This document shows, piece after piece, positions 2,048 to 37,715 of a DNA stretch of 64,000 nucleotides. Under the pieces are notes generated by a model. That model worked only from the letters and a program-made list of their open reading frames with translations, had not been told where the DNA came from and searched no databases. A program made the position numbers and the translations under genes. Source of the DNA: a virus; IMG/VR virus record IMGVR_UViG_3300021591_000018, positions 1 through 64,000 of that record. One strand, written 5' to 3'. Position 1 is the stretch's first letter; every line of letters starts with the position of its first letter.

Positions 2048-4293
2048 TGGCAACCGTTACTGCGTATCGGTTGAGGGAGCCCGTTACGAGACTTGTGATT
2101 AGGCCGAGTGGAAAGACAAGGCTATGCCTACCGGCGGACTATGCGAATAATAAACTCTTCAGATGGAACCAAGAAGTTACTGCTTCAGGTTGGAGTGTTC
2201 AGGGTAATCCTTACGCTGATTTCGTCAGATATGGCGTTGGATCAGTTATAATAAATTCCGGCTCTCAAGTGAAATTACATCGCGTTGGTTACACCGTTGT
2301 TTGGGACACCGTTTCTTGGAACGATCTTGTAGGTTTCTCAATCGACACGGTAAATCACATGTTTTCTATTCAATTTATACTCGACAACGATAAGGAGGAG
2401 ACTCTCGACTTCAGCAGCTATACGGAGGGAGCCGACGGGTCGCCGCTGATATACGACGATGATGAGAGTTTCTGGACAGCGATAGGAATAGGGTCGGGAA
2501 CTGTTCAAGTTCCGACACTTAGTGAAGAACTCACAGAAGTTAAAAAAGGAACTAGCTCACTTAAAGTAACTGTAAATACAACAGGAGGTAGTTATGCTGG
2601 CTGGGCTATTTATCATGACTATGCAACATCTCAAGATTGGAGCTCCTATGATTTTCTATGCCTCTATTGGTATGGAGCAAATTCAGGCACAACAATAAGA
2701 ATATATATTCCCGCACCCGATGGAGCAAATCAATTCTATTATGATCTTATCGATAATTGGACAGGGTGGAAGCGACTAGTTATTCCGCTTAGAGCTTTCT
2801 CCACTTATGGTTCTCCAAGCTGGAGTAATGTCACAGCGATAGATATAAGAAGCCAAGCTGACCCCGCCGATGCAACATACTATCTCGATCGCACGCTGGT
2901 CGATGTGGGGCAGTGGGCTGTTGTTGAGATATTCGTTCCAGATGTTTTGAAGAATGATTCATACGGTTTCTCTCTGTATAGCTGGAATGGATCAGAATAT
3001 GCGATCTTCTTGGCGTATAACCCCTATAACACTGACGACATCGGAACAACGGGCTGGCACAATCTCGTGTTCCTCGATGGAACTACTTCTTTAGATATTT
3101 ATCCAGGAGAAGGCTACATGATTCATGGACGAGGAGAAGTCGGTTCGAGAGGCGAAACAATCTCAGGAGTTCGAATGCAGAATGCAAGCTACAGCTCCTA
3201 CTACGGCTGTCGCCGCCGTCTCGGATTCGCTTTAAAATTACCACCCGACGACGGCCAAGACGCCAGCGACTATGGCATCTCACAGTGCAAGTTGAAATTG
3301 GAAGTCTATTACAGTGAAGACGAGAGTCGACGGATCGTCTATGACAGTAGCGGATACGGAAATAACGGTACTATCTACGGTGGCCCGACCTCTGTTGACG
3401 GTCGATTTGGACGTGCACTTTACTTCGATGGCGACGATTGGGTTGATGTTGCCCCAGGTAGTAACATACTGAACCTCCGAGAGAAAGTCACTGTATGCAC
3501 ATGGATAAAGATAAGCTCAACGCCGCCTGGCTATGTGTTCGCTTATGGCTCCGGCTTTTGGCCGCATCTTCAACTTGGCCTTGGGCTCAGTGGTTTGCAA
3601 AACTACACTGAGATCGAAACTGAAACCTCGTTTACGAATCTCTACGGTTCGACCGTTCCGCTGAATCAGTGGACATTCATAGCAGTGACGTATGATGCGT
3701 CCACAGGTGATTTGAAACTTTACAAGGATGGTCAATTTGATGCATCAACTACGCATAGCGGCAAGTTGTGGGAGGCGAATTCCTTCAAAGTTGGTAGTAA
3801 GTACGATGCCACCTTTAACTTCATAGGTTGTGTTGACGAAGTACGAGTCTACAATCGCGTCCTTAGTGAGAATGAGATCAGGCAACTATACGAGGGTGTT
3901 AACATCACCGACGGACTCGTCCTCCACCTGAAGCTAGACGAGGAAATCTACTACGGGTCCGCAACCTATGAATTCGAAGACAGCACTAACCAATACTATG
4001 GACTCCAGAACATTAATGAGCAGTGGCTTGCACTATTCAACCCTGATGACGATGAACTCGAGTTCTACTGCTTCGAGAAGCGTCCGACTTACATCTCCGT
4101 ACGAGCAGATGAGAACGAGATCATACGGGAAGTGATAGTTGACTTCCCGAAGCCTACCATCATCTACAAGGGCAAGGTTACAGGGGTTGACTTTAGCGAA
4201 GACAAAGACGGCAACGGTGTCCCAGACGTGTTCGAGACTTACTTCCCGTACCTCGAGGAGTTCGTCTCTGAGAAAGAGGTGACGGTTGCATGA
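2044..4293 (+). CDS. Virion/tail protein with CBM-like and LamG (concanavalin A-like) domains
   Basis: 749 aa. DSSGYGNNGTIYG...GRFGRALYFDGDD...WTFIAVTYD...LYKDG...FIGCVDEVRVYNRVLS is a recognisable LamG_3 pattern. Confidence 0.75.
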   Translation: MMATVTAYRLREPVTRLVIRPSGKTRLCLPADYANNKLFRWNQEVTASGWSVQGNPYADFVRYGVGSVIINSGSQVKLHRVGYTVVWDTVSWNDLVGFSIDTVNHMFSIQFILDNDKEETLDFSSYTEGADGSPLIYDDDESFWTAIGIGSGTVQVPTLSEELTEVKKGTSSLKVTVNTTGGSYAGWAIYHDYATSQDWSSYDFLCLYWYGANSGTTIRIYIPAPDGANQFYYDLIDNWTGWKRLVIPLRAFSTYGSPSWSNVTAIDIRSQADPADATYYLDRTLVDVGQWAVVEIFVPDVLKNDSYGFSLYSWNGSEYAIFLAYNPYNTDDIGTTGWHNLVFLDGTTSLDIYPGEGYMIHGRGEVGSRGETISGVRMQNASYSSYYGCRRRLGFALKLPPDDGQDASDYGISQCKLKLEVYYSEDESRRIVYDSSGYGNNGTIYGGPTSVDGRFGRALYFDGDDWVDVAPGSNILNLREKVTVCTWIKISSTPPGYVFAYGSGFWPHLQLGLGLSGLQNYTEIETETSFTNLYGSTVPLNQWTFIAVTYDASTGDLKLYKDGQFDASTTHSGKLWEANSFKVGSKYDATFNFIGCVDEVRVYNRVLSENEIRQLYEGVNITDGLVLHLKLDEEIYYGSATYEFEDSTNQYYGLQNINEQWLALFNPDDDELEFYCFEKRPTYISVRADENEIIREVIVDFPKPTIIYKGKVTGVDFSEDKDGNGVPDVFETYFPYLEEFVSEKEVTVA

Positions 4294-7200
4294 CGTGGGA
4301 GATCTACATCGACGGTGAGATCCATTCTGGTTCCATAGTGAAGATAGTCGAGGAGCTCAACAACCACTCAGAAGCGATCATTCGACTCCCACGGTCACCT
4401 GAGAACATTGAACTCGTCCAGAGCGACAGAGACGTAGACATCTACTTCGACGACAAGAAGATCCTCTCTGGTAAACTGATGGCTGCAAAGTTCAAGTATG
4501 ACTACATCGAATGTACGATCTATCCAGAGGCTGAGGACAAGCTTAAGAACAGCATCATAACGGGAACGTACGAAGACGCATCTCCAGAGACAGTCGCACA
4601 AGCGATATGTGATGCTGCAGGACTTACACTCGGATCCGCTCCTTCAACTCCAACTGTGAGTGTACGATTCGACCATGCTGTCTGTTGGGATGCTCTACGC
4701 CACCTCTGTGACGTCATCGATAAGGACTTCTGGTTCGACGGATCGACAGTCTACATAGGAGACAGAGGAACATCAGTCGGAGAAATCGTCCCACAAGGTC
4801 TTTCACGTCGAGCAGTCGATCGAAGTAAGGTTAAGAACAAGGTCATCATCCGAGGAGTGGACAAAGATGGCAATACAATCTACGGTGTAGCTCAGACAGG
4901 TGCTGGAGACAGAGTCATCGTCTTCACAGAGAAGAGAACTATGACTCAAGAAAACTTGAATCAGCTAGCACAGACGAAGCTCAAGGAACTGTCAAAGGAG
5001 GCAACTGGAGTAGCTTTCGATGTTTCACCTGATGTCGGAGTCAGTCTCAATGTCGGTGACACTGTCTACATCAACGCTGAAGAACTCAACCTCGTAGGCA
5101 ACTTCCGTATCTACCGGTTGACGAGAAAGGCAGAGAAGACCATCGTCGAAATTGACCGACCTGAACTTGTACTCGAATCCGTCTTCGAGGACATGCAGAG
5201 ACTCGAAGACCTTGGCATCTACCCGGTAAGTGCTGAGCAGCTTGACAATCCACCTGGACCACCTGCAGCACCAACTGGATTAACTGCTACACCACAGATC
5301 GGAGCCATTCTCCTTAAATGGAATGCTAACACCGAGGCTGACCTCGACCACTATGAAATCTATCGAGACACTTCAAGTCCTGCCTCTACTAAGATCGCTG
5401 AAGTCCACGCTACCTCATACCTTGATGAAGACGTCGAATACGGTGTGACGTACTACTACCGGATCAAGGCAGTCGACAGAGTTGGCAACAAGTCGGACTT
5501 CTCAGCTGAAGTCTCAGCGTCTCCACGTCAAGTCGAGACACCTGACCTTGAGGATCAATCAATTACAACAGATAAAATCGTCCCCGAAGCTGTTACAACC
5601 CCAATTCTTGCTCCCGACGCTGTAACAACCGAAAAGATCCAAGACCAGGCTGTCACTGAGCTTAAGCTTGCGGATCTGGCTGTTTCGACTCTGAAAATCC
5701 AAGACCTAGCTATAACCGAAACGAAAATTGCAGACGACTCGATCTCAACTCCCAAGCTTCAAGCAAATGCAGTGACTGCAGCAAAGATTGCTGCAGGAGC
5801 CGTTACTACTGAGAAACTCGATGCACACGCTGTTACTACGCGAAAACTCTACGTCTATCAGGTTCTCCTCGACAGTCCCGGATTTTCGGCTTCAGGTGGT
5901 GTACTCTCTTGGAATAGTTTTACACTTACCTATCAAGGCGTCGACTATGAGATCTCCTCTGGTAGCACTTCTGACATGTATATCTACTGGAAGGAAGGTG
6001 ATACATTCCTCTCAAGTAGCAATACGAAGCCAGATATCGCATCTGATCCATCCATCCATATGATTGCGGTATTCGACGCTTCAACCAACACTTTCTGGGA
6101 AGTTTGGAAGCCAACGGTAGTTCACGGCGGCATGATCATTACAGAGACAATTAGTACCGAGGAACTGGCTGCAGATGCAGTCACAACAGAGAAGATCCGC
6201 GCCGAAGCAGTCACAACAGCGAAACTGGCAGCTGGAGCCGTAACGTCTGAAAAAATTACTGCCGACTGGATCACAGGTAAGAAATTCCGCACAAGTGGAA
6301 GGGCGACCCCAGCAGCTGGAGTGGAATTTGATGACAACGGTATCCGAGGGTACGGAGATGCGACGACGAAGACATTCGAGATCGAGGCTGCAACTGGTGA
6401 CGTTAAAGTCTACGGTTCACAACACTTCATAGTGGCGGATGAGACTGGAACATCTATCGGTTACCTCGAGCATACAAGATACACGTTTGACTCGACTGAC
6501 TATGACACCGCGAGACTCGTAGCACCTTCACACTCTGCTGCAATTGAGGCATCAGGCTACTACTTACTACTACGACAAGATGGCAATTGGATTATAGGTG
6601 GTGACCCAACCATCCTTCCAGTAAGCGATCTACAAGTGAGGATCGGTGACAATTCGCATCGGCTGAAGGAGATTCATGTTGAAAGCCTTTACGCTGAGAA
6701 CCTCTCTGGGACGATCAATATCCTCAACTCCGATCTCGATGCTAACAGTCACAAGATCTACAACTTGAGTGGGTTAGAGCCAGATGGAACTGGGACACGA
6801 GACATCGGAACTTCTACTCTTCAATGGAAGGACGGTTACTTCGCTGGAACAGTCTACGGTGGATCAGGAGACTTTGGGAGTCTGTTGATTGGTGGGACTG
6901 AGGTGATTACAGGCTCGAGAGTTTTGCAGAATATCGCCTCGATTAACGTAAACCTACTTCCAAGTGATAACGATTTCTTCGATCTCGGCTCGGAGTCTTA
7001 CAAGTGGCACAGGCTGTTCCTTGGCTCTACAGATGTCGGCCTGAATGCGGGTGGAAGCATAGTGATCGGCGATGACACGAGCAATCTGAGGATAGATGAC
7101 AACGAAATACAACAATACGGGAATTCCCTTTATATTAATATCGATTCCCATGTAGACACGATTTTTGGATGTAACGTAAGACCTCATTCTGATAACGCCT

Positions 7201-9257
7201 ACGACCTCGGCTCCTCCTCATATCAGTGGCGTAACCTATACTTGGGCAATCAGCTAATCATAGGCGGAGATGTAGTCCTCTATCGTGGAGGAACCAATAT
7301 CCTTGAAACCGACGATCAGTTCCGGATCAGGTATGCTGGGTCTTGGGATCAACTAGTCTTCGATACGACCTCTGCAGACTCACGAATCGCAAAGGTTAAG
7401 GTAGGAAGTAGCAATAACTGGCTTTGGTTGGACGCCTACGCTGATACAGGCTACCTCGCAGTAGTCGGTTTCTTCCGCGGTGTTGTCGATGGTAAGCCAA
7501 GAATCCGATTCTTAAAGGGTGATGGTCAGCCCGATGGTGGAATTGAAGTTTTTCCACGGGAAGGCAAAATAGAGTTCGATGGTGACACTAATCTCTACCG
7601 CTCAGCCGCAGACGTGTTGAAGACGGATGACAACTTCGACTGTTTGGCCTTGAGGATAGGTGGAACCGAGGTCATAACTTCGGGGAGGGTGTTGCAGAAC
7701 ATAGCTTCCGTAGCTCAGAGTTTGCTTCCCGATACGGATAATACGAGGGATTTGGGGAGTTCGAGTTACAGGTGGAAGAGAGGATATTTTTATGAATACC
7801 TCTGGGTCTATGAGGTCCTCCGTCCTGGCATAGTGGAGAGGTTTGGTTCTTGGGGTAACGAACCAACGATACCAAGGCTCAACAACGTGTTGGCTCTAGC
7901 AGATCAAAGATTTACCGTAACGGTTTCTGCGACGCCAACTAGTGGAGGCGTCGCAAATATGTTCGACCACTCTTTCGAATCTAGCACTAGGTGGGATACC
8001 ACCGTAACATACCCCGTAACGATAGAAATCGACTTGGGGGGCACATACCACTATTTCACAGCTGTAGGTGTCTACTTCGTTTTCGGTCGATATCCGGGGT
8101 ATGTTAAGATAGAGATCTACAACACCAACACCTCGGCTTGGGAAACGTTAAAGGAGGTTTCTGGAAATACGAGTAGCCACGTCTACTGGGTCGGAGGCCA
8201 AAGCTATGTTGGGAAGATAAGGATAACACTAGACGAGCCAACAGCTAACCCCCATAACGAAATCGCGGTCGCACTTATTTACGCTGAGTCATCGGCTCTA
8301 ATGAAGGTAAAGGGTGGGGGTCATCCTCACTTTCCTGACCTTATGATAAACGGGTATGAAGTAATCACGAGCGGAAGGATTCTCCAGAATATCGCTTCAG
8401 TAGCACAAAGTTTGCTCCCGAATTCGGATAATGCCTATGATCTCGGCTCGTCGAGCTATAGGTGGAGAAATGTCTACCTCCGTAGCAGACTTTACATTTC
8501 TGGTACGGGAAACTTGGAGTGGTCTCTACATTCGAATGGAGAACACCTAGAAATCCGAGAGCCAGAAGACGGCGACAAAATCTGGTTTAAAATGGAGGAC
8601 GGAGTGGGAATACATCTGAACCCGGATGGGACTCAGGTTCTATCGATATTAACTGGTCAAATAACCCCGTATAAGAGCATAGTTCCGTCTTCCGATAATG
8701 CTTTAGACCTCGGCTCTTCAAGCTACAGGTGGCGCAACGGCTACTTCTCCGGTAACGTCAACCTCTCCGACACCTCACTCCTGAAGTTCGGAACGGATGT
8801 CAACCTTTACCGTGAGTCGGCTGATGTACTTAAGACGGAGGATAACTTCAACTGCCTCTCTCTTAGAATTCGTGGCACGGAGGTTATCAACCAAAACAGG
8901 CGACTTCGTAACATCGCATCTGTCGAAGGACCTTTGCTCCCAAGCTCGTCAGGCGCATATAACCTTGGTTCAAGCGTTTACAAGTGGGACGAGGTACACG
9001 CCAATGATGTTTATGGCACCGTCCGCTATGCCGATATGCACTTCCTGGACTTAAGATGTAAGCTATGTGGAAAGTCCTTTAAGGTGGGTGATCGACTTGA
9101 ACTCATCGTAACTGGCTTCGAGGAGGATCCAGTCACGGGAACCGAGATGCTTGCGGTTCCCGTTCACGTTGGATGTGCAGTTAAGAATAGTCTTTCCAAG
9201 AGAGTAAAGTCCTTCCTAGGGTGGTTGATATGCCGTATAGCTGGACGGAAGACATAA
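4290..9257 (+). CDS. Baseplate hub/central tail fibre protein: hub-like N-terminus, FN3 domain, trimeric fibre repeats, C-terminal Cys/His domain
   Basis: 1655 aa. FN3 (PAAPTGLTA...LKWNAN...YYYRIKAVDRVGNKS); AVTTEKI-type repeats; repeated DLGSSSYRW modules; C-terminal CKLC...HVGC. Confidence 0.8.
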   Translation: MTWEIYIDGEIHSGSIVKIVEELNNHSEAIIRLPRSPENIELVQSDRDVDIYFDDKKILSGKLMAAKFKYDYIECTIYPEAEDKLKNSIITGTYEDASPETVAQAICDAAGLTLGSAPSTPTVSVRFDHAVCWDALRHLCDVIDKDFWFDGSTVYIGDRGTSVGEIVPQGLSRRAVDRSKVKNKVIIRGVDKDGNTIYGVAQTGAGDRVIVFTEKRTMTQENLNQLAQTKLKELSKEATGVAFDVSPDVGVSLNVGDTVYINAEELNLVGNFRIYRLTRKAEKTIVEIDRPELVLESVFEDMQRLEDLGIYPVSAEQLDNPPGPPAAPTGLTATPQIGAILLKWNANTEADLDHYEIYRDTSSPASTKIAEVHATSYLDEDVEYGVTYYYRIKAVDRVGNKSDFSAEVSASPRQVETPDLEDQSITTDKIVPEAVTTPILAPDAVTTEKIQDQAVTELKLADLAVSTLKIQDLAITETKIADDSISTPKLQANAVTAAKIAAGAVTTEKLDAHAVTTRKLYVYQVLLDSPGFSASGGVLSWNSFTLTYQGVDYEISSGSTSDMYIYWKEGDTFLSSSNTKPDIASDPSIHMIAVFDASTNTFWEVWKPTVVHGGMIITETISTEELAADAVTTEKIRAEAVTTAKLAAGAVTSEKITADWITGKKFRTSGRATPAAGVEFDDNGIRGYGDATTKTFEIEAATGDVKVYGSQHFIVADETGTSIGYLEHTRYTFDSTDYDTARLVAPSHSAAIEASGYYLLLRQDGNWIIGGDPTILPVSDLQVRIGDNSHRLKEIHVESLYAENLSGTINILNSDLDANSHKIYNLSGLEPDGTGTRDIGTSTLQWKDGYFAGTVYGGSGDFGSLLIGGTEVITGSRVLQNIASINVNLLPSDNDFFDLGSESYKWHRLFLGSTDVGLNAGGSIVIGDDTSNLRIDDNEIQQYGNSLYINIDSHVDTIFGCNVRPHSDNAYDLGSSSYQWRNLYLGNQLIIGGDVVLYRGGTNILETDDQFRIRYAGSWDQLVFDTTSADSRIAKVKVGSSNNWLWLDAYADTGYLAVVGFFRGVVDGKPRIRFLKGDGQPDGGIEVFPREGKIEFDGDTNLYRSAADVLKTDDNFDCLALRIGGTEVITSGRVLQNIASVAQSLLPDTDNTRDLGSSSYRWKRGYFYEYLWVYEVLRPGIVERFGSWGNEPTIPRLNNVLALADQRFTVTVSATPTSGGVANMFDHSFESSTRWDTTVTYPVTIEIDLGGTYHYFTAVGVYFVFGRYPGYVKIEIYNTNTSAWETLKEVSGNTSSHVYWVGGQSYVGKIRITLDEPTANPHNEIAVALIYAESSALMKVKGGGHPHFPDLMINGYEVITSGRILQNIASVAQSLLPNSDNAYDLGSSSYRWRNVYLRSRLYISGTGNLEWSLHSNGEHLEIREPEDGDKIWFKMEDGVGIHLNPDGTQVLSILTGQITPYKSIVPSSDNALDLGSSSYRWRNGYFSGNVNLSDTSLLKFGTDVNLYRESADVLKTEDNFNCLSLRIRGTEVINQNRRLRNIASVEGPLLPSSSGAYNLGSSVYKWDEVHANDVYGTVRYADMHFLDLRCKLCGKSFKVGDRLELIVTGFEEDPVTGTEMLAVPVHVGCAVKNSLSKRVKSFLGWLICRIAGRKT
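5553..6260 (+). repeat. Decapeptide (A/S)(V/I)TxxK(I/L)xxx fibre repeats in two blocks
   Basis: SITTDKIVPE AVTTPILAPD AVTTEKIQDQ AVTELKLADL... and later AVTTEKIRAE AVTTAKLAAG AVTSEKI. Confidence 0.8.
6780..8990 (+). repeat. Repeated fibre modules (IGGTEVITSGRVLQNIAS / LLPxxDNxYDLGSSSYRW / NLYRxxADVLKTDDNF)
   Basis: About seven D(L/I)GSS-type...W copies and four EVI...(L/R)xNIAS copies are visible in the translation. Confidence 0.8.
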
Positions 9258-9904
9258 GTCCAGGTGCATCGATTGACGCTGCAGACATCAACGAGATGAA
9301 GCAGGCGTTAGACGATATCTACAGTGATCACTCACTTACGTACCCTGGATGCGCCTCGGGTGCCGGGTGGGTAGCCTTGCCTGTTAATCCGGGTGATCCG
9401 ATCAGTTCAACGCAGTTCTATGAACTCCGAGATCGTACCGACTACGCTTGGGAGGAAGTTTGCTGCACCGGCCACTGTGAGGTTGCGTTTTCACCCGAGG
9501 ATACTGCTGAATACACGATGGATGATCCCGGTTTCTACGTCACTGTAAACGACTCGCAAAATGCACTTGAGGACTCAGCTGCCCGCTCAGCAGAAGACTA
9601 CGGTGAACGCGTAAGTGAGGACGTTGGATATGATGTTTCGGTTGACTCCGGTGATGACAACGGAGCATACTCTGGTCATCGGTATAGCCAGAACATTGGT
9701 GCGGATTCAGGTGTCGATAACAATGACCATGGTACATATGACTCCAATGAGCATACTACCTTCAGGAGCACTTACCATGCTGATTACGATGTCGGAGAGA
9801 ATACAGGCTACCGTAGCACTGATCACGACTCAGTCAACTCACCTCACAACTCGAGCGTCTGTAGCTCCTACAAGGCGTATCACGACGTCCCGTTAGGTGT
9901 TTAG
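9230..9904 (+). CDS. Acidic tetrapeptide-repeat protein A (two leader-like motifs plus 36 four-residue units); candidate rSAM substrate
   Basis: ATG at 9230 gives MPYSWTEDISPGASIDAADINEM, matching the paralog start. Ungapped 4-aa register from CTGH to DVPL. Confidence 0.75.
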   Translation: MPYSWTEDISPGASIDAADINEMKQALDDIYSDHSLTYPGCASGAGWVALPVNPGDPISSTQFYELRDRTDYAWEEVCCTGHCEVAFSPEDTAEYTMDDPGFYVTVNDSQNALEDSAARSAEDYGERVSEDVGYDVSVDSGDDNGAYSGHRYSQNIGADSGVDNNDHGTYDSNEHTTFRSTYHADYDVGENTGYRSTDHDSVNSPHNSSVCSSYKAYHDVPLGV

Positions 9905-9905
9905 A

Positions 9906-10427
9906 ATGCCGCTTTCGTGGACACAGGACATCAGTTCCGGTGCATCTATTGACTCAGCTGACGTACAGGAAATCCGGGACAACATCGACGCTGTGATCGA
10001 CTGCAGTCCAGAGTGTAGTGCAGATTACATCTCAGTGGAGTCCGGATTCGATATTGGCGTCTACACTACCGAGGACTACAATGCATATACCACAGCATAC
10101 ACGAATGTAAAGTCCGGAGAGGACATCTCGGTGTTGACGGGATATGATGCCGATGTATATGTGGGCGAAAATACCTCCGAAGACAGTGGGAAAAACTCTT
10201 CAGTCGATACAGGTGACTTCGTGTCTGTTAAAACCAATTACGACTCCGGAGAAAATGTTGGTGATGATATCGGCTACGACTCCACCTACAAAGCGGGAGT
10301 GGACGGGGAGGATTACGGTGACTACAACTCATCCTACGATGGAGCCGTCGACTCCAGCGATTATGGGGATCACAACTCACCGTACAATATCACGGTCAAG
10401 TCTTCCCACAATTCAGGGGTGACATGA
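9906..10427 (+). CDS. Acidic tetrapeptide-repeat protein B (one leader-like motif plus 35 four-residue units); candidate rSAM substrate
   Basis: MPLSWTQDISSGASIDSADVQEIRDNID is paralogous to protein A. 4-aa register from CSPE to NSGV. Confidence 0.75.
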   Translation: MPLSWTQDISSGASIDSADVQEIRDNIDAVIDCSPECSADYISVESGFDIGVYTTEDYNAYTTAYTNVKSGEDISVLTGYDADVYVGENTSEDSGKNSSVDTGDFVSVKTNYDSGENVGDDIGYDSTYKAGVDGEDYGDYNSSYDGAVDSSDYGDHNSPYNITVKSSHNSGVT

Positions 10428-11701
10428 TGGAAGCGGCAGAGCTACTTACAACGGGCTGGTGTCCATTGAACTGTACGTATTGCTACATTCCGAAGAGCCG
10501 GATGATGATCCATCTTCACTCACGCATTCGAGGGTATCTTCAGTCCGGTGAATTCATCGAGGATCTTAAGCGTTTCTACGGTGGCAAGCTCCACTTCCTC
10601 GGGTTCTGGGGTACTGAGCCGCTCTTGACTCTCTCGGACATCAAGCCACATCTACCCGAGATAGTAGAGGCGTTTCCAAACCTCGAAGCAATCAGCTTCA
10701 GCACGTCGTTGCTGTACCGTCCACTGGAGATAGTCGACTTCGCTGCAGCTATGCCGAGGAAAATTCAGCTTCGAGTCCAGATAAGCGTTGACGGTCCAGC
10801 TTGGATTACAGACCGCAACCGACGTGTAGGAGCTGCTGAAGAGATTCCACGGAACTTCGAAACAGTATTGAGGGAACTCAATGCGACGTCGACGTGCCCA
10901 GTCGAGTTCCGGTGGAAGGTGACGCATTCGATCGAGAACATCCGAGGCTTCACGCCGGAAAGGGTGAGAGGGTTCATCGGTTACTTCAAAAGGCTAAACG
11001 CAACTTTCGACAGAGTTAACCGGAGACGAGATGTCACTCTGCGACGTGGGAGCTTCTGTCCAACCATAGTGGTTCCAGGGAAGTACACCGCAAATGATGG
11101 CAGGGCATTTGCCAGATATCTACGTCTCTTTCACGCTGAAAACTTCGACACTAGTTATACTTATCGACTCCGGAGGATCATAGACTTGTTTCCTGACATT
11201 GCGAAGACTCGGATGTTCACATGCAGTGGCGGCGACAGCAATGCCGGGGTCGGATTCGGGAAGTTGCACATCTGCCACAGAACGTTTTACTACGATTGCC
11301 CGGAGTACGTAGAGAGCATTGTGACTCAAGAGCGATACAAGAACTGGGATGTCAGTCACTTTGAGGAAGGAACTGTAGACTGGGTCGCAAGGTGGTTTAT
11401 CACTGATGATGTCCCTCGTTTCCGCTATGTTATGAGAGGTTACCACGACTTCTGGAGATTCAAGATCAGTTATACTGAGACTATGGTTCAGTTGCTTGCG
11501 AAAGTCGGCGAAGCGAATCCGAGGTATCTTTCTGACCCTGGATTTAGGCAACTCTTCGCCATCTTCGAAAACGTTGCGCTGAGTTGCCCGATGGAGAATC
11601 TTCTCAACACTGGGTCTATACACCTCCAGACTTTGAGCCTTATCCGCATGTTTGCGAATGGAGCTTTCGAGGAGTTGGTGGAGCGATGCAAGAGAAGATG
11701 A
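10424..11701 (+). CDS. Radical SAM enzyme 1 with reduced SPASM/Twitch-like C-terminus
   Basis: CPLNCTYC (CxxxCxxC), WGTEPLL, ISVDG, then TCSGG...ICHR and a distal CPMEN. Confidence 0.85.
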   Translation: MMEAAELLTTGWCPLNCTYCYIPKSRMMIHLHSRIRGYLQSGEFIEDLKRFYGGKLHFLGFWGTEPLLTLSDIKPHLPEIVEAFPNLEAISFSTSLLYRPLEIVDFAAAMPRKIQLRVQISVDGPAWITDRNRRVGAAEEIPRNFETVLRELNATSTCPVEFRWKVTHSIENIRGFTPERVRGFIGYFKRLNATFDRVNRRRDVTLRRGSFCPTIVVPGKYTANDGRAFARYLRLFHAENFDTSYTYRLRRIIDLFPDIAKTRMFTCSGGDSNAGVGFGKLHICHRTFYYDCPEYVESIVTQERYKNWDVSHFEEGTVDWVARWFITDDVPRFRYVMRGYHDFWRFKISYTETMVQLLAKVGEANPRYLSDPGFRQLFAIFENVALSCPMENLLNTGSIHLQTLSLIRMFANGAFEELVERCKRR

Positions 11702-12912
11702 TCGAGTACATCCTCGAGAGGACATTCTACAAGACCTGGAGAAACGGCGAAGGGTTATTCAGTAAGCTCGAGCTCTTCGTGAATCCGTATTGTAACCTCC
11801 GATGTAAGTACTGTTATCTGCAACGTTACAGTGAAGGGCTGTACCCACCAGAAGCGAGGAAACCACCGAGAGAGATACTGTCCAATGGACTGAGAGTCCT
11901 TCGATGGTTGAAAGCGAATGACTTCCGCCCTGAGATCGAGATTTTCAGTGGAGAGCCCTTGATTCAGCCAGCCTGCATCGAACTGATGGTTCGAGCTTCT
12001 GAAGTTGCGAAACAGGTAGTTGTGCCAACGAACTACACCTTCCTGCTCTCCGAGAGGCTTACGCGTTTGGTGGAGTCTACACTTCGCCCGAACATCGTGC
12101 TCTCCGCAAGCTTCGACGGTAAGTACTGCGAGCACGCAAGGCCATTCAAACACGGACCCGAACTCCGGGACGATGTCTACTACGACAAATGTTTCCAGTT
12201 CAACGCAAAACATCGCTTTGGTTTTCACCCGATGGTCGCTCCGCAGAACATCGAAAACTGGACTGAGAACTTCCTCTGGTTCCAGGAGAACTTTAAGAAA
12301 TTCGGAATCCCATGGACGAATTTGTACTTGCTCGAAGTCCGAAACCCTGAATGGACAAAGTCTCAGCTTCGCCACCTCGATGAGTTCCTCCGGTTTCTTG
12401 TACGTTGGAGTTGGAAGAAGTGTCAGTCCAGTAACAGGCTGTTCCGTGAGTTCCTTTTCAAAGGACGCGGCTTCAATATTCTCAGTAGTCCCTTCGTTAC
12501 CATTGGACGTGGGATTGGGTGCTCAATTCAATCCACGCTGACAATTCGCCTAGGTGATCTTGCAATAGTCCCATGTCATCGAACTGCATATAAGCCTTTC
12601 ATCCTTGGGTACTTCAGAGATGGGATCGAAATCACAAATCCGGAGCTCTTCGTCGCAGTGTACAGTTTCGATCGCAGATCGCTACCTTATTGCGAGCAAT
12701 GTGATATTCGTGAACTCTGTAGTGGAGGATGTCTAGGAGCACAGCTGGAAAGCCTCGGAGATATGTTCACTCCACATCCGAATGTCTGTTTACTTGAGCA
12801 TATCAAGATTAATGCAATTCTTTCAGAACTTAATGAGATAGGAGTTCTCTCGTACCTAACTAAGTTTATTCGAACCGAGAAGCAAAAAGCGATCGAGGGG
12901 TGGATAAAGTGA
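11686..12912 (+). CDS. Radical SAM/SPASM enzyme 2
   Basis: CNLRCKYC, FSGEP, ASFDG; full SPASM GCSI...PCHR...CEQCDIRELCSGGC...VC. Likely start is ATG 11686 (after GGTGGAG) or 11698 (ATGA overlap). Confidence 0.9.
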   Translation: MQEKMIEYILERTFYKTWRNGEGLFSKLELFVNPYCNLRCKYCYLQRYSEGLYPPEARKPPREILSNGLRVLRWLKANDFRPEIEIFSGEPLIQPACIELMVRASEVAKQVVVPTNYTFLLSERLTRLVESTLRPNIVLSASFDGKYCEHARPFKHGPELRDDVYYDKCFQFNAKHRFGFHPMVAPQNIENWTENFLWFQENFKKFGIPWTNLYLLEVRNPEWTKSQLRHLDEFLRFLVRWSWKKCQSSNRLFREFLFKGRGFNILSSPFVTIGRGIGCSIQSTLTIRLGDLAIVPCHRTAYKPFILGYFRDGIEITNPELFVAVYSFDRRSLPYCEQCDIRELCSGGCLGAQLESLGDMFTPHPNVCLLEHIKINAILSELNEIGVLSYLTKFIRTEKQKAIEGWIK

Positions 12913-13403
12913 GTTTTGAAGAGACGAAAGCAGTTCTCGAACGCGAACTTCGTTCTGAGCGATTGAAAGTCTATTTTGGCAAGAGAGTGCTGGACGACAT
13001 CCATCGACTTGTCTCTCTGATGCTGCGCGACGTTACAAACCTGATGGCTGACAAGCAGGTCTCAGTAGATGATAAAACGATCGAAGACCTTAACAGAGTT
13101 TTGGACGCGATGATCGACGTCGTTTCAATCATACCTCTGGATGAGAGGGTCACAGACTTTTGTCAGAATTTCGCTCGTCTAGCATATAACTGGAACCAAA
13201 ATCTACGACGAGATCGCTCAATCGAGAGAAAAACAAGGGTTCTCGATAGACTGCTACGTCAGCACTTGACGATCGTCGAAGCAACGAATGTCTTAAGGAG
13301 GCTTACTCGGCGGCTTGAGAGGTTCCTCGACTACTCTCCACCTGCCTTTCGTCTTGCACGACACTTTCTTGAGAGCGTCTTTGAAGAGCAGCAACCTCCC
13401 TGA
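12900..13403 (+). CDS. Alpha-helical hypothetical protein closing the rSAM operon
   Basis: 167 aa ORF overlapping the rSAM2 stop (GTGA at 12909-12912); last + strand gene before the convergent arm. Confidence 0.6.
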   Translation: MDKVSFEETKAVLERELRSERLKVYFGKRVLDDIHRLVSLMLRDVTNLMADKQVSVDDKTIEDLNRVLDAMIDVVSIIPLDERVTDFCQNFARLAYNWNQNLRRDRSIERKTRVLDRLLRQHLTIVEATNVLRRLTRRLERFLDYSPPAFRLARHFLESVFEEQQPP

Positions 13404-13669: not shown

Positions 13670-13962
13670 GGTCTCACCTTCCGTTTGCGTAACAGTTCGT
13701 CGAGTGTCTTCAGCTTCTGCTTCCTAGCTTCACGCTCTTGTTTGCGTTGCTGATCGGCCGCTAGCAACTTTATTCTCTCCTTGACTCTTGCCTTCGCCCA
13801 ATCGTCAAATGTTCCGTCGTCCAGCATGGACCTGAGGTCGTCTTCTTTTACGCTGACAGCAAAGCCGTCCCGTCCACCTTTCTCTTCGAAGAGTAGTGTC
13901 ACAGTGCCCTCTCCGACTTCATGTATTCGAATCTTGTACTCGTAGTCGTTGAACTCACTCAT
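13666..13962 (-). CDS. Hypothetical protein
   Basis: 98 aa ORF coupled to its neighbours. Confidence 0.6.
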   Translation of the reverse strand: MSEFNDYEYKIRIHEVGEGTVTLLFEEKGGRDGFAVSVKEDDLRSMLDDGTFDDWAKARVKERIKLLAADQQRKQEREARKQKLKTLDELLRKRKVRP

Positions 13963-14488
13963 CTATTCTCACCTCCAACACCTCTAACCGAGAAGAAAGA
14001 AGGTCAGCAAAGTGGATGATAGCCGAGAGTAAGTCATTCGGATAGACGGATGACCTTGACCATCCTCCCATGTGACTTAAGATTGCTCGTGCAATGTAAG
14101 TTGGCAGAACGTAGCCGGTTTCCTCTTGGAACATCTGAAGTCCACTTACCTCGTGACTCGCCCAACGGAATGGGTTGTCCTCGAACTTACCGTCAACTTC
14201 GACGTAGTCCTGAAGTTTACCAACGTCATGGAGTAGAGCTGCCACAATGACGTTCTCCAAATCTATGTAACCTACGATATGTGCGATCTTGACTGCCAGT
14301 TCAACGACGTTCAACGTATGGTCAAGTAATCCTCCACGATAGTTACAGTGGTGATACAGACTCGCTGGATAGTTCTCGAATTCCCTACGATGTCGATCGA
14401 AGAACTTTTCTAGGGCTTCTCGGAGACGTCTGTTCCGTACCTTTTGAATCCATCGCCGCAACTCGTTCCAACGGTTCAACTGTCGCAC
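13955..14488 (-). CDS. HD-domain phosphohydrolase (YhaM-like HD)
   Basis: PASLYHH...GGLLDHTLNV...ALLHDVGK...SHMG...IIHFADLLSS. Confidence 0.85.
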   Translation of the reverse strand: MRQLNRWNELRRWIQKVRNRRLREALEKFFDRHRREFENYPASLYHHCNYRGGLLDHTLNVVELAVKIAHIVGYIDLENVIVAALLHDVGKLQDYVEVDGKFEDNPFRWASHEVSGLQMFQEETGYVLPTYIARAILSHMGGWSRSSVYPNDLLSAIIHFADLLSSRLEVLEVRIDE

Positions 14489-18041: not shown

Positions 18042-18612
18042 AGTGCTTCTTCCGTAAGTTGAAGAACTCCTCACGTGCAGCTGGATTCCAGAGGAACACA
18101 CCCCGACAAGCTGAACAAACGTACGGTCTTGGTTGGAAGCCTTCGACCATCTTGCAGGTGTGGACTGCTGACGAGACGACTATCACACCGTACGGCTTTG
18201 CGGCTTCCCAGAGTTCATCTGCAATCTGTGCAGTCATTCGCTCCTGTATCTGGAAGCGTAGTGCGTACTTCTCGACCAGTTGGTCGAGCTTCGACAAACC
18301 GACGACTCTCTCCTTTGGTATGTAGCCGATGTCAACGGTACCGTAGAAAGGCATGAAGTGATGTTCGCACAACGTTGTAAATGGGATCCCAAATTCAGCT
18401 ACAAGGTCAGCCTTACCCTCGTATTGTCTCCAGAGTTTCACCTCACGATTGTAGCCCTCCGTGAAACGCAGCCACGTTGTCGCAATTCGTATCGGTGTTC
18501 TACGTAAGTCCTCAGACTCTGGATCCAGTCCTAGTATCTCGATTATCTCCTTGATGTGTTCTGCGATCTTCTTGGCTCTCTCATCCTCTTCATACGGTTC
18601 CAACAGACTCAT
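18028..18612 (-). CDS. folE: GTP cyclohydrolase I
   Basis: TPIR, LCEHHFMPFYG, GLSKL, QERMTAQIA, HTC. Confidence 0.95.
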   Translation of the reverse strand: MSLLEPYEEDERAKKIAEHIKEIIEILGLDPESEDLRRTPIRIATTWLRFTEGYNREVKLWRQYEGKADLVAEFGIPFTTLCEHHFMPFYGTVDIGYIPKERVVGLSKLDQLVEKYALRFQIQERMTAQIADELWEAAKPYGVIVVSSAVHTCKMVEGFQPRPYVCSACRGVFLWNPAAREEFFNLRKKHYGGE

Positions 18613-19301
18613 TTTCCAGGTTCACCTCCCCAGATTAGATAGTGCAATTGAGGCAATATTCGCACATCATACTCAGGAAGATAGGAAGTTGACCATTCGA
18701 ACAACTTCTCGAGGAACTTCATATAGCCGAATTCTGAGGCAGTCTTCGATTCAGGTTGTAATACAACCGTTACAGCACTTTCAAGTTCATATAGGATGTC
18801 TCTAACTTCCCAAAGATCTGCTGGACGAGTTATGACGAACTTCAAGTAGGACTCATTTCCATAGAGTTCAGATTGCTCAACAATATAGTTCAATACGTCC
18901 ATCTTAACTGCATCGGGAATGCCTGAGTTTTTGAGTTTTGGCGACACACTCCAAACGTCAACCACCTCTAACAACCCATCGGATGGCTTAATCGTACCAT
19001 TCGTCTCTACCATCAATGGAAAGAAGTCTGTCTTGTTTAGGAACTCTGTGAGTTCCTCGTGATCCTGGAGGAGTGGTTCACCTCCAGTCAGAACGAGTGC
19101 ATCCTCCTCGAGCCCTTGTACTGATACCACCCGGTAAAGTTTATCGACCGTGATGTCATGTCCTCCAGCCCATGCGTACTTCGAGTCGCACCACTTACAG
19201 CGCAAATTACATCCAGCAAACCGTACGAAGACTGACGGTTTGCCAATGTACAAGCCCTCGCCCTGGATGCTACGGAAGATCTCAACTACCTTCAAAGCCA
19301 T
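18609..19301 (-). CDS. queE: 7-carboxy-7-deazaguanine synthase (radical SAM)
   Basis: EIFRSIQGEG...FVRFAGCNLRCKWCDS, TGGEPLLQ, ETNGT, SPKL, PQLH. Confidence 0.95.
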   Translation of the reverse strand: MALKVVEIFRSIQGEGLYIGKPSVFVRFAGCNLRCKWCDSKYAWAGGHDITVDKLYRVVSVQGLEEDALVLTGGEPLLQDHEELTEFLNKTDFFPLMVETNGTIKPSDGLLEVVDVWSVSPKLKNSGIPDAVKMDVLNYIVEQSELYGNESYLKFVITRPADLWEVRDILYELESAVTVVLQPESKTASEFGYMKFLEKLFEWSTSYLPEYDVRILPQLHYLIWGGEPGK

Positions 19302-28724: not shown

Positions 28725-28976
28725 TCAGGCATAGATTCCCGATGGTGCCTCAGACTCGTCGTAGCCATAGCCTTGTTGTGTTAGTCGCTTGGCGATCTCG
28801 AGACATCCAATCCGTGATGGCAGACTGAGTGTCTCGAGGAGATTTAGGATTGCAGTTAGTACGGCTACAGAGCGATTCTCCTCTCGCTCAATAGGCCGTA
28901 TGAGTTTGACGAGCTGTTCGACTTGCCTGTTGATGACCTCGGCTATCTGTTCTCCATTAAGTTCTTCTCGATCCAA
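28725..28976 (-). CDS. Hypothetical protein
   Basis: 83 aa ORF with GGAGG SD. Confidence 0.55.
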   Translation of the reverse strand: MDREELNGEQIAEVINRQVEQLVKLIRPIEREENRSVAVLTAILNLLETLSLPSRIGCLEIAKRLTQQGYGYDESEAPSGIYA

Positions 28977-29464
28977 CGTCCGACCTCCTCAAGTTGCTCG
29001 AGGCTTTTTGCACGATAGCAACATATCTTACCGGTGCTGAAAATGTTCAATGTCACACCGAGCTCTGGCAAACGCAAAGTTGCAGCTGGAAACGTCTCCG
29101 GTTCGTAGACGACGTTGTCGAATTTCTGCCAGAGGTCCTCGAGAATGACTGTTCGGTGAAGGTCGAAGTAAGCTACGACTTGAGCGATACGCACGTCGAC
29201 AACCTCAACGTTGTTGTAATATCTTTTAATGAGCTCCATAAGTTCATCGACGTATTTTTGATAGTTTGCAGACTTAATTCCGTTAAGTGTCACTTTTCCT
29301 GACTCTGCTAAGATAGCACGTACACCTGATGGTAACTTGAAGAAGACAGCAGTGAATCTCCACGGATCATACTTTGCCTTCGGTATGACTTGTGCAACTT
29401 CGTCGAGGTCGAATCTCCTGTTCAACTGCACTACGACTACACAGTTCTTGATGGTGTAGTCCAT
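28943..29464 (-). CDS. tbp: TATA-binding protein homolog
   Basis: Two TBP repeats: NCVV...YDPWRFTAV...SGKVTLNG and QVVA...YEPETFPAA...IFSTGKI. Confidence 0.9.
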   Translation of the reverse strand: MDYTIKNCVVVVQLNRRFDLDEVAQVIPKAKYDPWRFTAVFFKLPSGVRAILAESGKVTLNGIKSANYQKYVDELMELIKRYYNNVEVVDVRIAQVVAYFDLHRTVILEDLWQKFDNVVYEPETFPAATLRLPELGVTLNIFSTGKICCYRAKSLEQLEEVGRWIEKNLMENR

Positions 29465-35215: not shown

Positions 35216-35230
35216 TTTAAATTTCTCTCA
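35216..35230 (-). promoter_or_regulatory. TGAGAGAAATTTAAA BRE/TATA-like motif (copy 1 of 4)
   Basis: Near-identical motif at 43526-43542, 52546-52561 and 53781-53800, always at gene boundaries. Confidence 0.5.
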
Positions 35231-37306
35231 ATTAAATTTTGAGACGGTTCCATCAAACAGATGGCGTTGACGATATTCCTCCTGTTTGCCTTGATTCCAG
35301 TTCTGTACAGGACGGTAGTATCCCGTGATTCGACTGTAAACCTCACAAGTGCTCTTACATGACGGACAGACGTCATGATGTCCTGGCCAATATCCACAGT
35401 TCGGACAGATACTGAACGTAGGTGTGATGGTTACGTACGGTAGACGGAAACTGTAGAAGATTCGTCGTATGAGCTTGCTACATCCTTCCCAGGATGGCAA
35501 AGCTTCTCCTAGCCAGGTGTGGAAGACAGTCCCTCCAGTGTAAAGCTCCTGTAGAAGTTCCTGATGTTCGAGTGCCTCAGCAAGGCTGAACTCTACCCAC
35601 ACCGGCAGTTGTGTTGAGTTCGTATAGTATGGCGTCTCCTTACCTGACGTGTAGATATCATCGAACATCTGTCGATCAATCAACGCCAATCTATAACTGC
35701 AACTCTCAGCAGGAGTTGCCTCCAGATTGTAGAGGTGACCAGTCTCTTCCTGGAAGTCAACTAAACGTTCACGCATGAACATGAGGACGTCAATCATGAA
35801 CTCACGTCCCTCGTCAGTCTCAATTCCCTTACCGAGGTAGTTCATACAGCACTCATGCCCACCAACGATTCCAATCGTTGAGAAGTGATTTGTCCAGTAG
35901 CTACCTGTTGCATCTTTAATCGGTTGAAGGTACTTTTGTGAGTATGGATAGAGTCCAACTTCAGTTAACTTCTCGACTGTTTTACGTTTCAACTCAAGGC
36001 TTTCCTTTGCAAGTTGCATCAATTCGTCCAACATCTCGAAGAATTCATCATCGTCGTTTGCTATGTAACCAATTCGTGGGAGGTTAATCGTCACGACTCC
36101 AATTGAGCCTGTCATTGGGTTTGCTCCGAAATACCCTCCACCTTTCCTGTAGAGTTGACGTGTGTCCAGACGGAGACGACAACACATACTACGCACTTGG
36201 TCTGGACTCATGTCGCTGTTGATAAAGTTCGCAAAGTAAGGCGATCCATACTTCGCAACCAACTTCCAGAGGGACTCGTCGTCCCAAGTGAAGTCAGGTG
36301 TCACGTTATACGTTACTATCGGAAATGTAAAGATCCGTCCATTTGCGTCTCCCTCGTACATGGCTTCACAATAGACTTCGTTGAACAAGTCGACCTCGTC
36401 CTGAAAGTCACCGTAGACGTCGCCTTTCAACTCACCTCCACAGATTACGGCTTCATTCTCCATAAACTTCGGAACGATTCGGTCGAACGTCACATTGGTG
36501 AATGGCGTTTGGAACCCGACTCTCGTCGGAACGTTCATGTTGAAGAGGAACTCCTGTAGCTCTTGTTTCACTTCATCTCGAGTAAGTCCATCGTATCGTA
36601 TGAATGGTGCGAGATACGTATCGACGTTGCTGAATGCTTGTGCACCAGCAGCCTCTCCTTGTAACGTATAGAGGAAGTTCCAAATCTGTCCAAGTGCACT
36701 ACTGAAGTGCTTAGGTGGTTTACTCTTGATCTTTCCGAAGACACCACCAAAACCTTCGATTAACAGTTGTCGTAAGTCCCATCCGACACAGTACGGACCA
36801 AGTACACCAAGGTCATGTATGTGGAAGTCACCGTCCTGGTGAGCTTTACGAATCCCAGGTGGATAAACTCTCATCAACCAATACTCTGAGATGCTACGCT
36901 GTACGAGGTAGCAATTCAAACCTTGCATCGAGTAACCGATGTTCGCATTCTCCCGAACCATCCAGCTGCTACGATTGAGATACTCGTCAATAACGTCACC
37001 TGACTCGATGAGATGTGCCAATCTCCGCATTGTCATACGTTGTTCTCTGTAAAGTATGTATGCTCTTGCAACCTCATAGTATCCATGCTTCATGAGGACT
37101 TTCTCTACGATGTCCTGAATCTCCTCGACAGTCGGGACTCCATCGTCTCCAAATCGTCGTCCTATGTACCAGAGAACAGAGTTGACGAGTTTTTCGACGT
37201 CTCCTCTCGTACCTACTGCTCGGAAAGCTTTCTCTATAGCTGTCCTGATCCTCTCACGGTCAAACTCAACAAGACGACCGTTTCTCTTTCGAACGTACTT
37301 TACCAT
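35228..37306 (-). CDS. nrdD: Class III (anaerobic) ribonucleotide reductase with ATP cone
   Basis: VRKRNG ATP cone, HIHDL, YCVGW, SMCCRL, EATPAES, CPNC..CPSC, YSRITGYY glycyl-radical loop. Confidence 0.95.
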   Translation of the reverse strand: MVKYVRKRNGRLVEFDRERIRTAIEKAFRAVGTRGDVEKLVNSVLWYIGRRFGDDGVPTVEEIQDIVEKVLMKHGYYEVARAYILYREQRMTMRRLAHLIESGDVIDEYLNRSSWMVRENANIGYSMQGLNCYLVQRSISEYWLMRVYPPGIRKAHQDGDFHIHDLGVLGPYCVGWDLRQLLIEGFGGVFGKIKSKPPKHFSSALGQIWNFLYTLQGEAAGAQAFSNVDTYLAPFIRYDGLTRDEVKQELQEFLFNMNVPTRVGFQTPFTNVTFDRIVPKFMENEAVICGGELKGDVYGDFQDEVDLFNEVYCEAMYEGDANGRIFTFPIVTYNVTPDFTWDDESLWKLVAKYGSPYFANFINSDMSPDQVRSMCCRLRLDTRQLYRKGGGYFGANPMTGSIGVVTINLPRIGYIANDDDEFFEMLDELMQLAKESLELKRKTVEKLTEVGLYPYSQKYLQPIKDATGSYWTNHFSTIGIVGGHECCMNYLGKGIETDEGREFMIDVLMFMRERLVDFQEETGHLYNLEATPAESCSYRLALIDRQMFDDIYTSGKETPYYTNSTQLPVWVEFSLAEALEHQELLQELYTGGTVFHTWLGEALPSWEGCSKLIRRIFYSFRLPYVTITPTFSICPNCGYWPGHHDVCPSCKSTCEVYSRITGYYRPVQNWNQGKQEEYRQRHLFDGTVSKFN

Positions 37307-37310
37307 CTGA

Positions 37311-37715
37311 TCACCTCGTGAAGGGGATCTCCTTACCAAAGGGAGTATTCTTTACCTCTGGTAAGTTGGTAACATAGGCAACTAATTCAAAACTACAGTT
37401 GAACTTAAGAAGGATTTCTCTTAAGTCTTCGATAATATCAGTTGGTAATTCAACTTTGAAGGTGACGTTCTCTAAGCTGTAAGTGTAATCTTCACCTGTT
37501 GAGGGCAACTTTTCAAGTTCTTCGAGCAAGATGCCGTTGAATGGCCCATATGTGTAGTTGTAATAGCTAAGTGATGTTAGTCTTCGACCAGTCTTCTGAT
37601 AGTAGATTCTCTCGAGAAGATATGCTGTTTTGAGAAAGGTCATGACATCTACAGTTGAGTAACCTAGATTCTTAAGGATCTGACACACTGTTAACGCGTA
37701 CTCATCTGGATTCAT
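37311..37715 (-). CDS. Panacea (DUF4065/SocA-like) antitoxin domain protein
   Basis: KTAYLLE...TGRRLT...YNYTYGPF. Confidence 0.7.
   Translation of the reverse strand: MNPDEYALTVCQILKNLGYSTVDVMTFLKTAYLLERIYYQKTGRRLTSLSYYNYTYGPFNGILLEELEKLPSTGEDYTYSLENVTFKVELPTDIIEDLREILLKFNCSFELVAYVTNLPEVKNTPFGKEIPFTR

Follow-up and report, generated by a model that had tools for sequence, protein, structure and literature searches.

A conserved radical SAM cassette with candidate repeat-protein substrates behind the tail fiber gene of an uncultivated virus

The stretch of DNA analyzed here (the window) comprises positions 1 to 64,000 of IMG/VR virus record IMGVR_UViG_3300021591_000018, a 76.8-kb sequence with an estimated completeness of 69%. 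Directly behind the gene for a 1655-aa tail fiber, the window carries five open reading frames (ORFs) encoding two repeat proteins (A and B), two radical S-adenosylmethionine (SAM) enzymes (rSAM1 and rSAM2) and a helical protein that we call the helper. All five overlap or abut, and together with the fiber gene they form one dense co-oriented block on the plus strand (4290-13403), past the end of which the coding strand switches. In the list below, the N-motif is a conserved N-terminal motif, and a tetrad is one four-residue unit of a repeat core.

4290..9257 (+): tail fiber, 1655 aa; best match phrog_892 (3.3e-26), with about 20 PHROG tail-fiber families besides
9230..9904 (+): protein A, 224 aa from its ATG; 28-nt overlap with the 3' end of the fiber gene; N-motif copy 1 at 9230-9337 and copy 2 at 9362-9448, a Cys-containing linker, tetrad core at about 9488-9901
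9906..10427 (+): protein B, 173 aa; start 2 nt past the stop of A; single N-motif at 9906-10010; Cys at residues 33 and 37; about 34 tetrads at about 10017-10424
10424..11701 (+): rSAM1, 425 aa; ATGA overlap with B; CxxxCxxC at 10460-10483
11686..12912 (+): rSAM2, 408 aa; CxxxCxxC at 11791-11814; seven-Cys SPASM region at 12520-12789
12900..13403 (+): helper, 167 aa; 13-nt overlap with rSAM2; conserved NWN motif and C-terminal PPAF-x-LS motif

Homolog alignment makes ATG 11686 the most likely start of rSAM2, rather than the TTG at 11584 of the mechanically called ORF, and antisense ORFs within the rSAM genes (11120-11725 and 11755-12375, minus strand) were taken as spurious. An earlier sequence-only reading of this DNA had described paralogous repeat proteins that share an N-terminal motif duplicated in A, two CxxxCxxC enzymes of which one has a full and the other a reduced SPASM region, and a helical ORF of 167 residues; the analyses below bear out each of these points.

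Proteins and enzymes of the cassette

A and B are paralogs (BLASTP E = 1e-15, 32% identity). Their N-motif spans about 35 residues and consists of Met, a small residue, Phe or Tyr, any residue and Trp, with Gly, Ile and Glu-Ile-Arg/Lys-x-Asn-x-Asp later on; the second copy in A (residues 45-73) scores 32.6 bits with a hidden Markov model made solely from second copies in other loci. Run against 1.84 billion representatives, a profile of 40 motif copies matches 958 protein clusters. Most members of these clusters are 60-250 aa long and carry the motif from residue 1, and larger proteins with the motif inside them are also among the matches. A Cys commonly follows the motif, and the motif is absent from the fiber proteins that adjoin the cassette. 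AlphaFold2 (AF2) models residues 1-33 of B confidently, as an extended stretch that leads into a helix (residues 17-33), and gives the core a predicted local distance difference test (pLDDT) score below 50, that is, predicted disorder. Both proteins are acidic, and neither has a signal peptide or a peptidoglycan-binding domain.

The core that follows the N-motif keeps a strict four-residue register: a bulky residue, then Asp, Asn or Tyr, then two small residues. TRF finds no tandem repeat in the DNA, and the repetition exists at the protein level only, with periods of 4, 8 and 16 residues and, in some members, a period-8 and period-16 signal that exceeds that at period 4. Identity at lags 4-16 reaches z = 8.4 in A and 8.8 in B; none of 5000 shuffles (0/5000) attained these values, and the same holds for the period-4 power of small residues. 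B passes through its tetrads without a register shift, as does a relative with 79 of them, and across the family the cores measure between about 50 and over 300 residues.

We compiled tetrad composition from 1491 tetrads out of 63 proteins, with the phase picked by the residue classes at positions 2-4. Position 1 is Tyr in 22%, Val in 18%, Asp in 15% and His in 12% of tetrads (Tyr, His or Phe together in 36%) and excludes, at a cut of <0.5%, residues that include Gly, Ser, Thr and Pro. Position 2 is Asp (34%), Asn (24%) or Tyr (16%), and Ala, Gly, Ser, Thr, Val, Ile, Pro and Met are excluded from it by the same cut. Position 3 is mainly Ser, Ala, Thr and Gly (Gly 12%), and position 4 mainly Thr, Ser and Gly. 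Cys makes up 3% of position 2 and <0.5% of the other positions, and the window's own repeats contain none. Among the locus proteins, 33% have a C-terminal motif resembling His/Tyr-Asn-Ser-Gly within their last 24 residues, versus 11% of internal windows; this enrichment was too weak for us to retain the motif as a modification site.

Both enzymes exceed the Pfam gathering score for radical SAM proteins (PF04055, 29.5 bits), rSAM1 with 31.3 bits and rSAM2 with 34.4 bits. rSAM2 alone also passes the TIGR04085 SPASM model (30.2 bits, cut-off 27). Its SPASM cysteines C279, C297, C336, C339, C345, C349 and C368 are invariant in 25 sequences, as are those of its CxxxCxxC motif, and with this full SPASM region it probably binds two auxiliary Fe-S clusters. 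In rSAM1, whose motif cysteines are invariant across 27 homologs, the auxiliary region is reduced: C267, C284-H285 (C-x16-CHR) and C388 are conserved, and the CxxCx5Cx3C arrangement is missing. The two enzymes are distant paralogs of one another (hhalign probability 97.4%, E 1.6e-11, 16% identity). Their best NCBIfam matches are all below threshold and comprise PapB (67.3 bits), QhpD, SCIFF, nif11-type enzymes and HxsB for rSAM2, and PapB together with the cyclophane formers AmcB, GrrM, YhhB and XyeB for rSAM1. All named NCBIfam matches of either enzyme (for rSAM2, among the best 25 of 40) belong to maturases of peptides or proteins. In a sequence search of the PDB, rSAM2 proved distantly akin to CteB (5wgg, E = 3e-6), and rSAM1 found no match.

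AF2 predicts the helper to be an all-helical six-helix bundle with a pLDDT of 94.5. It belongs to no Pfam, NCBIfam or PHROG family, without an NCBIfam match above noise; Foldseek against PDB and BFVD returned nothing at E <= 0.001; and a VIA-wide structure search gave generic helical repeats, with a top Z of 9.6, and no specific fold. A search for helper-enzyme fusions found none, which is weak evidence. The predicted complex of rSAM2, the helper and residues 1-80 of B scored 0.00, a result that we read as no verdict and that carries no weight in either direction.

Related loci and the source virus

A search with rSAM2 returned 863 scored relatives, none of them named beyond 'radical SAM / SPASM'. 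We gathered loci through rSAM2 alone, at 30-48% identity, and compared 58 of them. The related loci comprise 50 from IMG/VR and 7 on short contigs binned into metagenome-assembled genomes (MAGs) of the candidate phyla radiation (CPR), DPANN, Thermoplasmata and Peptococcaceae; rSAM2 homologs also lie on long, cellular-looking contigs of up to 539 kb. The sequence-only reading had proposed a neighborhood search for co-occurrence of the five genes, and its outcome speaks for the set. rSAM1 adjoins rSAM2 in 56 of the 58 loci, and the other two are interrupted by contig ends. The helper is found in 45, after one or both rSAM genes and in 4 loci with a copy behind each, and N-motif proteins are found in 38, in 33 of them as a pair. 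Gene order varies between loci, which points to selection on the set rather than to one inherited arrangement.

A DNA pattern search anchored on the repeat proteins yielded 8 true matches, with no counter-example among them: six lie on contigs with a known rSAM pair, another follows the C-terminal fragment of a SPASM enzyme with which its contig starts, and the last sits at a contig end. Three loci without an N-motif match (L017, L033 and L063) have four-periodic proteins rich in Asp, Ser, Tyr and His beside the enzymes, and in a fourth (L059) a His-rich protein with HxS-type repeats adjoins them. In L059 and L063, both on Saccharibacteria MAG contigs, the substrate candidates have a different, signal-like N-terminus. 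That four-periodic proteins persist while the N-domain changes suggests that the enzymes track the repeat and not the N-domain. Two viruses that are close to each other share 87% identity in rSAM2, 79% in rSAM1 and 90% in the first 40 residues of A, but only 47% and 21% in the cores.

The genes upstream of the cassette match tail fiber, spike or baseplate PHROGs in 5 of 10 sampled loci (L009, L023, L035, L052 and L061), and these fiber genes differ widely from locus to locus. Some relatives of A and B combine the N-motif with larger domains. A 401-aa protein of L035 (5944-7149, plus strand) has a lectin-like insert, of LamG type by eye, between N-motifs 1 and 2 and ahead of its tetrad tail, so the N-motif can flank folded domains. 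A 469-aa protein of L150 (1449-2855, plus strand) joins the N-motif to a His/Asn/Asp repeat with a 16-residue period and a long Gly-rich C-terminal domain of fiber type, and immediately upstream of it, where the contig starts, is the C-terminal part of a divergent SPASM enzyme.

In several AT-rich viral contigs among the relatives, the rSAM2 homolog is broken 4-6 times by a single type of stop codon, TAG in L038 (9001-10281), L044, L055 and L056 and TGA in L050 (9001-10302) and L043, which suggests stop-codon-recoded viruses with the same cassette. The sole protein matches in cultured phages, radical SAM enzymes of Campylobacter phages, are 24% identical and stand in another context; they are not this cassette. 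Literature on phage or viral radical SAM, SPASM and RiPP (ribosomally made peptide with modification after translation) systems, searched in full text, yielded no description of it.

The source genome also codes for a family B DNA polymerase, an anaerobic ribonucleotide reductase (NrdD) and one intein, and the window contains the following features of this kind.

28943-29464 (-): TBP, two repeats, 93 bits
53285-53734 (-): Spt5, with NGN and KOW domains
35228-37339 (-): anaerobic ribonucleotide reductase NrdD with ATP-cone, 639 bits
58444-60984 (+): 846-aa ORF with an intein splicing domain and a LAGLIDADG homing endonuclease

The polymerase, NrdD, the intein, TBP and Spt5 together identify the source as a tailed virus of an anaerobic archaeon; TBP and Spt5 mark the virus as an archaeal one that brings transcription factors of its own, and NrdD points to an anaerobic host, which is compatible with oxygen-sensitive radical SAM enzymes. 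Pfam adds only weak fn3 and End_tail_spike matches for the tail fiber. Near the cassette, on the opposite strand, is an HD-type metal-dependent phosphohydrolase (13955-14488, minus strand; phrog_5889, 1.8e-22), and an extra radical SAM ORF further on (18609-19301, minus strand) weakly matches the HxsC model, at 18.5 bits. A protein with a metallo-beta-lactamase fold (62449-63999, plus strand) continues beyond the window edge; it has a weak, below-cut-off C-terminal match resembling dinitrogenase FeMo-cofactor-binding proteins, an odd combination for a virus.

Function of the cassette

Conservation across the loci supports the view that the five genes form one functional unit, and an enzyme-substrate relation between the two radical SAM enzymes and A and B is the best reading of the gene neighborhood and a well-supported one. 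On balance, we lean toward a conserved late-operon radical SAM cassette of uncultivated tailed viruses that modifies A and B as fiber-associated host-interaction proteins. rSAM1 and rSAM2 would act on A and B after translation. The helper would assist each enzyme, probably by binding, by analogy with the bacterial antiphage system HXS, in which HxsC binds HxsD (Li et al., Nat Commun 2026, PMC13128918). The N-motif would stay on the protein as a module for recognition or docking instead of being cleaved off as a leader, because the cassette has no protease and the motif is duplicated, flanks globular domains and is present in larger proteins. Of the leader-plus-core arrangement invoked by the sequence-only reading, the conserved N-terminal part and the variable core stand, and the name leader is doubtful.

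The tetrad core, otherwise disordered, would be the substrate. The most likely chemistry would be repeated hydrogen abstraction at tetrad position 2, with cross-links or a different alteration of backbone or side chains that makes the chain rigid. Position 2 is suggested by its residues, which have an unbranched beta-carbon with a further substituent, and by the kinship of the enzymes with PapB and QhpD, which act on the beta or gamma carbon of Asp/Glu. The product could be a cross-link, an epimer or something else, and the proposed chemistry, like the heat and protease resistance that had been envisaged for the modified fiber, is pure inference. Together with the tail fiber, the modified A and B would then serve as host-interaction appendages; going by gene position and by the relatives with lectin-like or Gly-rich fiber-type domains, the two proteins may be associated with the virion. 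A bolder version, which we put forward only tentatively and consider rather doubtful, is that a large set of uncultivated tailed viruses of archaea and of CPR/DPANN-type hosts employs its dedicated radical SAM pair to install a novel periodic covalent modification on hypervariable, fiber-associated proteins, at the beta-carbon of every fourth residue, turning a disordered acidic chain into a rigid, stapled host-recognition appendage as part of virion assembly.

Several observations weigh against this interpretation. Three loci (L041, L047 and L083) have the rSAM pair and, in the part of each locus that was examined, no evident repeat protein, and the cassette occurs in no cultured phage by DNA and protein searches, with no near or distant DNA match. 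No tetrad position has a universal residue type, so a single uniform cross-link is hard to specify; with the phase chosen as it was, the composition of positions 2-4 is partly circular, and only the position-1 rule is fully independent. The scores to named maturases lie so far under their cut-offs that chemistry cannot be transferred from them. About 30 residues precede the cluster motif of rSAM2, which leaves no space for the usual N-terminal RiPP recognition element (RRE) and calls for another means of recognition. Finally, HxsA, the repeat protein of HXS, has a single mapped modification, which argues against presuming one per repeat; the tens of modifications per protein proposed by the sequence-only reading are therefore doubtful. 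As a separate observation on L047, further radical SAM genes surround its pair (5424-7488 and 10910-12181), and this locus may be an expanded or a different variant.

An alternative, which we judge unlikely, is a virus-borne counterpart of HXS in which the matured repeat proteins work in the envelope of the infected cell, by superinfection exclusion or surface remodeling, and not in the virion. The sole characterized system of two radical SAM enzymes, a partner and a repeat protein is antiphage and blocks DNA entry (PMC13128918), and the CPR-binned versions of the viral cassette have candidate substrates with signal-like N-termini and sub-threshold HxsA3 and HxsA4 matches. The viral A and B, however, lack a signal peptide and a peptidoglycan-binding domain; they are acidic and not basic, so the DNA-binding model of HXS cannot be transferred to them; they lie within the tail module, where A overlaps the fiber gene; and the enzymes and helper of the window fail the HxsB, HxsC and HxsD models.

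It is likewise improbable that the enzymes instead target the tail fiber, a glycan or a small molecule and that A and B are unmodified fiber accessories that fold by themselves, for instance into a beta-helical trimer or a rod that binds metal. Short-period repeats can make up triple beta-helices in the tail proteins of phages, T4 gp5 for example, and the disorder that AF2 predicts for a monomer is compatible with folding as a trimer. The stronger period-8 and period-16 signal of some members and the glycosyltransferase-like genes after the cassette in L017 and L045 fit this alternative as well. Yet the fiber genes vary widely while four-periodic proteins stay beside the enzymes despite the change of N-domain, and the closest relatives of the enzymes are all peptide or protein maturases.

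A true RiPP pathway, in which a host protease would cut the N-terminal part from A and B and small modified peptides would be set free to serve as toxins or signals, would account for the conserved N-terminal part, hypervariable core and rSAM/SPASM enzymes, which are the classic RiPP layout. We regard it as quite unlikely, given a cassette without a protease or transporter, cores of about 50 to more than 300 residues, the globular domains in L035 and L150, a duplicated motif and the location in a tail module. Low-complexity acidic proteins are common and the ORF calling was mechanical, but a chance neighborhood or low-complexity artefact is scarcely credible against conservation in about 50 divergent loci, a register that 0/5000 shuffles reach and 958 N-motif clusters.

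Small natural-product peptides are the known targets of radical SAM/SPASM maturases, to which a few cellular proteins (CrpA and HxsA) were added very recently; to our knowledge, radical SAM modification of a virus's own structural proteins has never been shown. If viruses do apply this chemistry to tail-associated proteins of their own, covalent radical chemistry would join the steps of virion assembly, the strict and fast-evolving four-residue repeat would gain an explanation and the enzyme pair would probably carry out unknown chemistry. With 863 scored rSAM2 relatives and 958 N-motif clusters, the cassette is widespread, and its confinement to uncultivated viruses and ultra-small prokaryotes would explain why it escaped study. 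Given its kinship in layout with HXS defense, one may also ask whether such a cassette arose on the viral or on the host side of their conflict.

Comparison with known systems

The sequence-only reading knew of no characterized example. For viruses this holds as far as the full-text searches reached, but HXS, described in 2026, is a characterized system of two radical SAM enzymes, a helper and a repeat protein, bacterial and defensive. In HXS (HxsD-HxsB-HxsC-HxsA, TIGR03976-03979), HxsB, HxsC and HxsD mature HxsA, a periplasmic antiphage effector with five basic HxS triplets, a signal peptide, a peptidoglycan-binding domain and one mapped +8 Da modification; the system is bacterial, with 99.7% in Pseudomonadota (PMC13128918). 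We consider it the nearest characterized analog of the viral cassette, alike in layout and not in families. Both combine a pair of neighboring radical SAM enzymes with a small partner and a short-period repeat protein matured by the enzymes (putatively so on the viral side), whereas the viral repeat has a period of 4 rather than 3, is acidic, runs to about 30 or more units, lacks an export signal and stands in a tail module.

The family models for the enzymes and the partner separate the two systems. Against HxsB (TIGR03978), rSAM2 scores 26.8 bits and rSAM1 15.1 bits, with a cut-off of 370. The HxsC model (TIGR03977, 267.9 bits) has no match in the cassette, and its sole match in the record is the 18609-19301 ORF mentioned above. 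The HxsD model (TIGR03976, 50 bits) has none in the record at E <= 10, and the helper has 167 residues versus the 90 positions of that model. A and B are without an NCBIfam match; the CPR-binned substrate candidates of L059 and L063 fall just below threshold, with 55.6 bits versus 65 for HxsA3 and 51.1 versus 55 for HxsA4.

The comparison with bacterial CXXX-repeat systems, drawn in the sequence-only reading, is apt. These systems (TIGR04115/04117/04119; PF27846, tSAM_targ_Cxxx_rpt), which have in silico definitions only, likewise place a four-residue periodic target beside radical SAM maturases, but their periodic residue is Cys and not Asp, Asn or Tyr. In the ESM Atlas, B has as a neighbor a viral cluster with PF27846 in 53% of its members (score 0.82), which we treat as a lead only. 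The related loci contain no (Cxxx)n ORF of at least 4 units, save one antisense artefact. TIGR04115 (350 bits) is not among the listed matches of the window's enzymes (for rSAM2, the best 25 of 40), and rSAM1 of L059 scores 16.5 bits with it.

Among named enzymes, PapB, a maturase of freyrasin-type ranthipeptides (NF047865), is the top family for rSAM2, with a full-length alignment and 67.3 bits against a cut-off of 340, and QhpD follows with 44.7 bits against 453. PapB and QhpD form thioethers to the Asp/Glu carbon, PapB substrates repeat a CX3D unit, and the viral repeats differ from PapB and QhpD substrates in offering no Cys donor. The triceptide (three-residue cyclophane) maturases XyeB, GrrM/OscB, YhhB and AmcB, whose family is defined by an aromatic-X-X motif in each substrate unit, are among the top rSAM1 matches, at 17-25 bits versus cut-offs of 310-450. 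Many viral tetrads likewise start with Tyr, His or Phe, but an aromatic residue occupies position 1 in just about 36% of tetrads, and position 3 is Gly in 12%. Another point of comparison is the archaeal CrpC/CrpA pair of Methanococcus voltae, in which a radical SAM/SPASM enzyme modifies a whole protein, not a short peptide; it differs in being a single enzyme with an RRE that acts on a Cys-rich substrate, installs thioether cross-links and is cellular (PMC13692751). Set beside all of these systems, the viral cassette appears, by its sequences, to bring three things that are new: putatively radical SAM-matured repeat proteins in viruses, a new type of repeat and new enzyme subfamilies.

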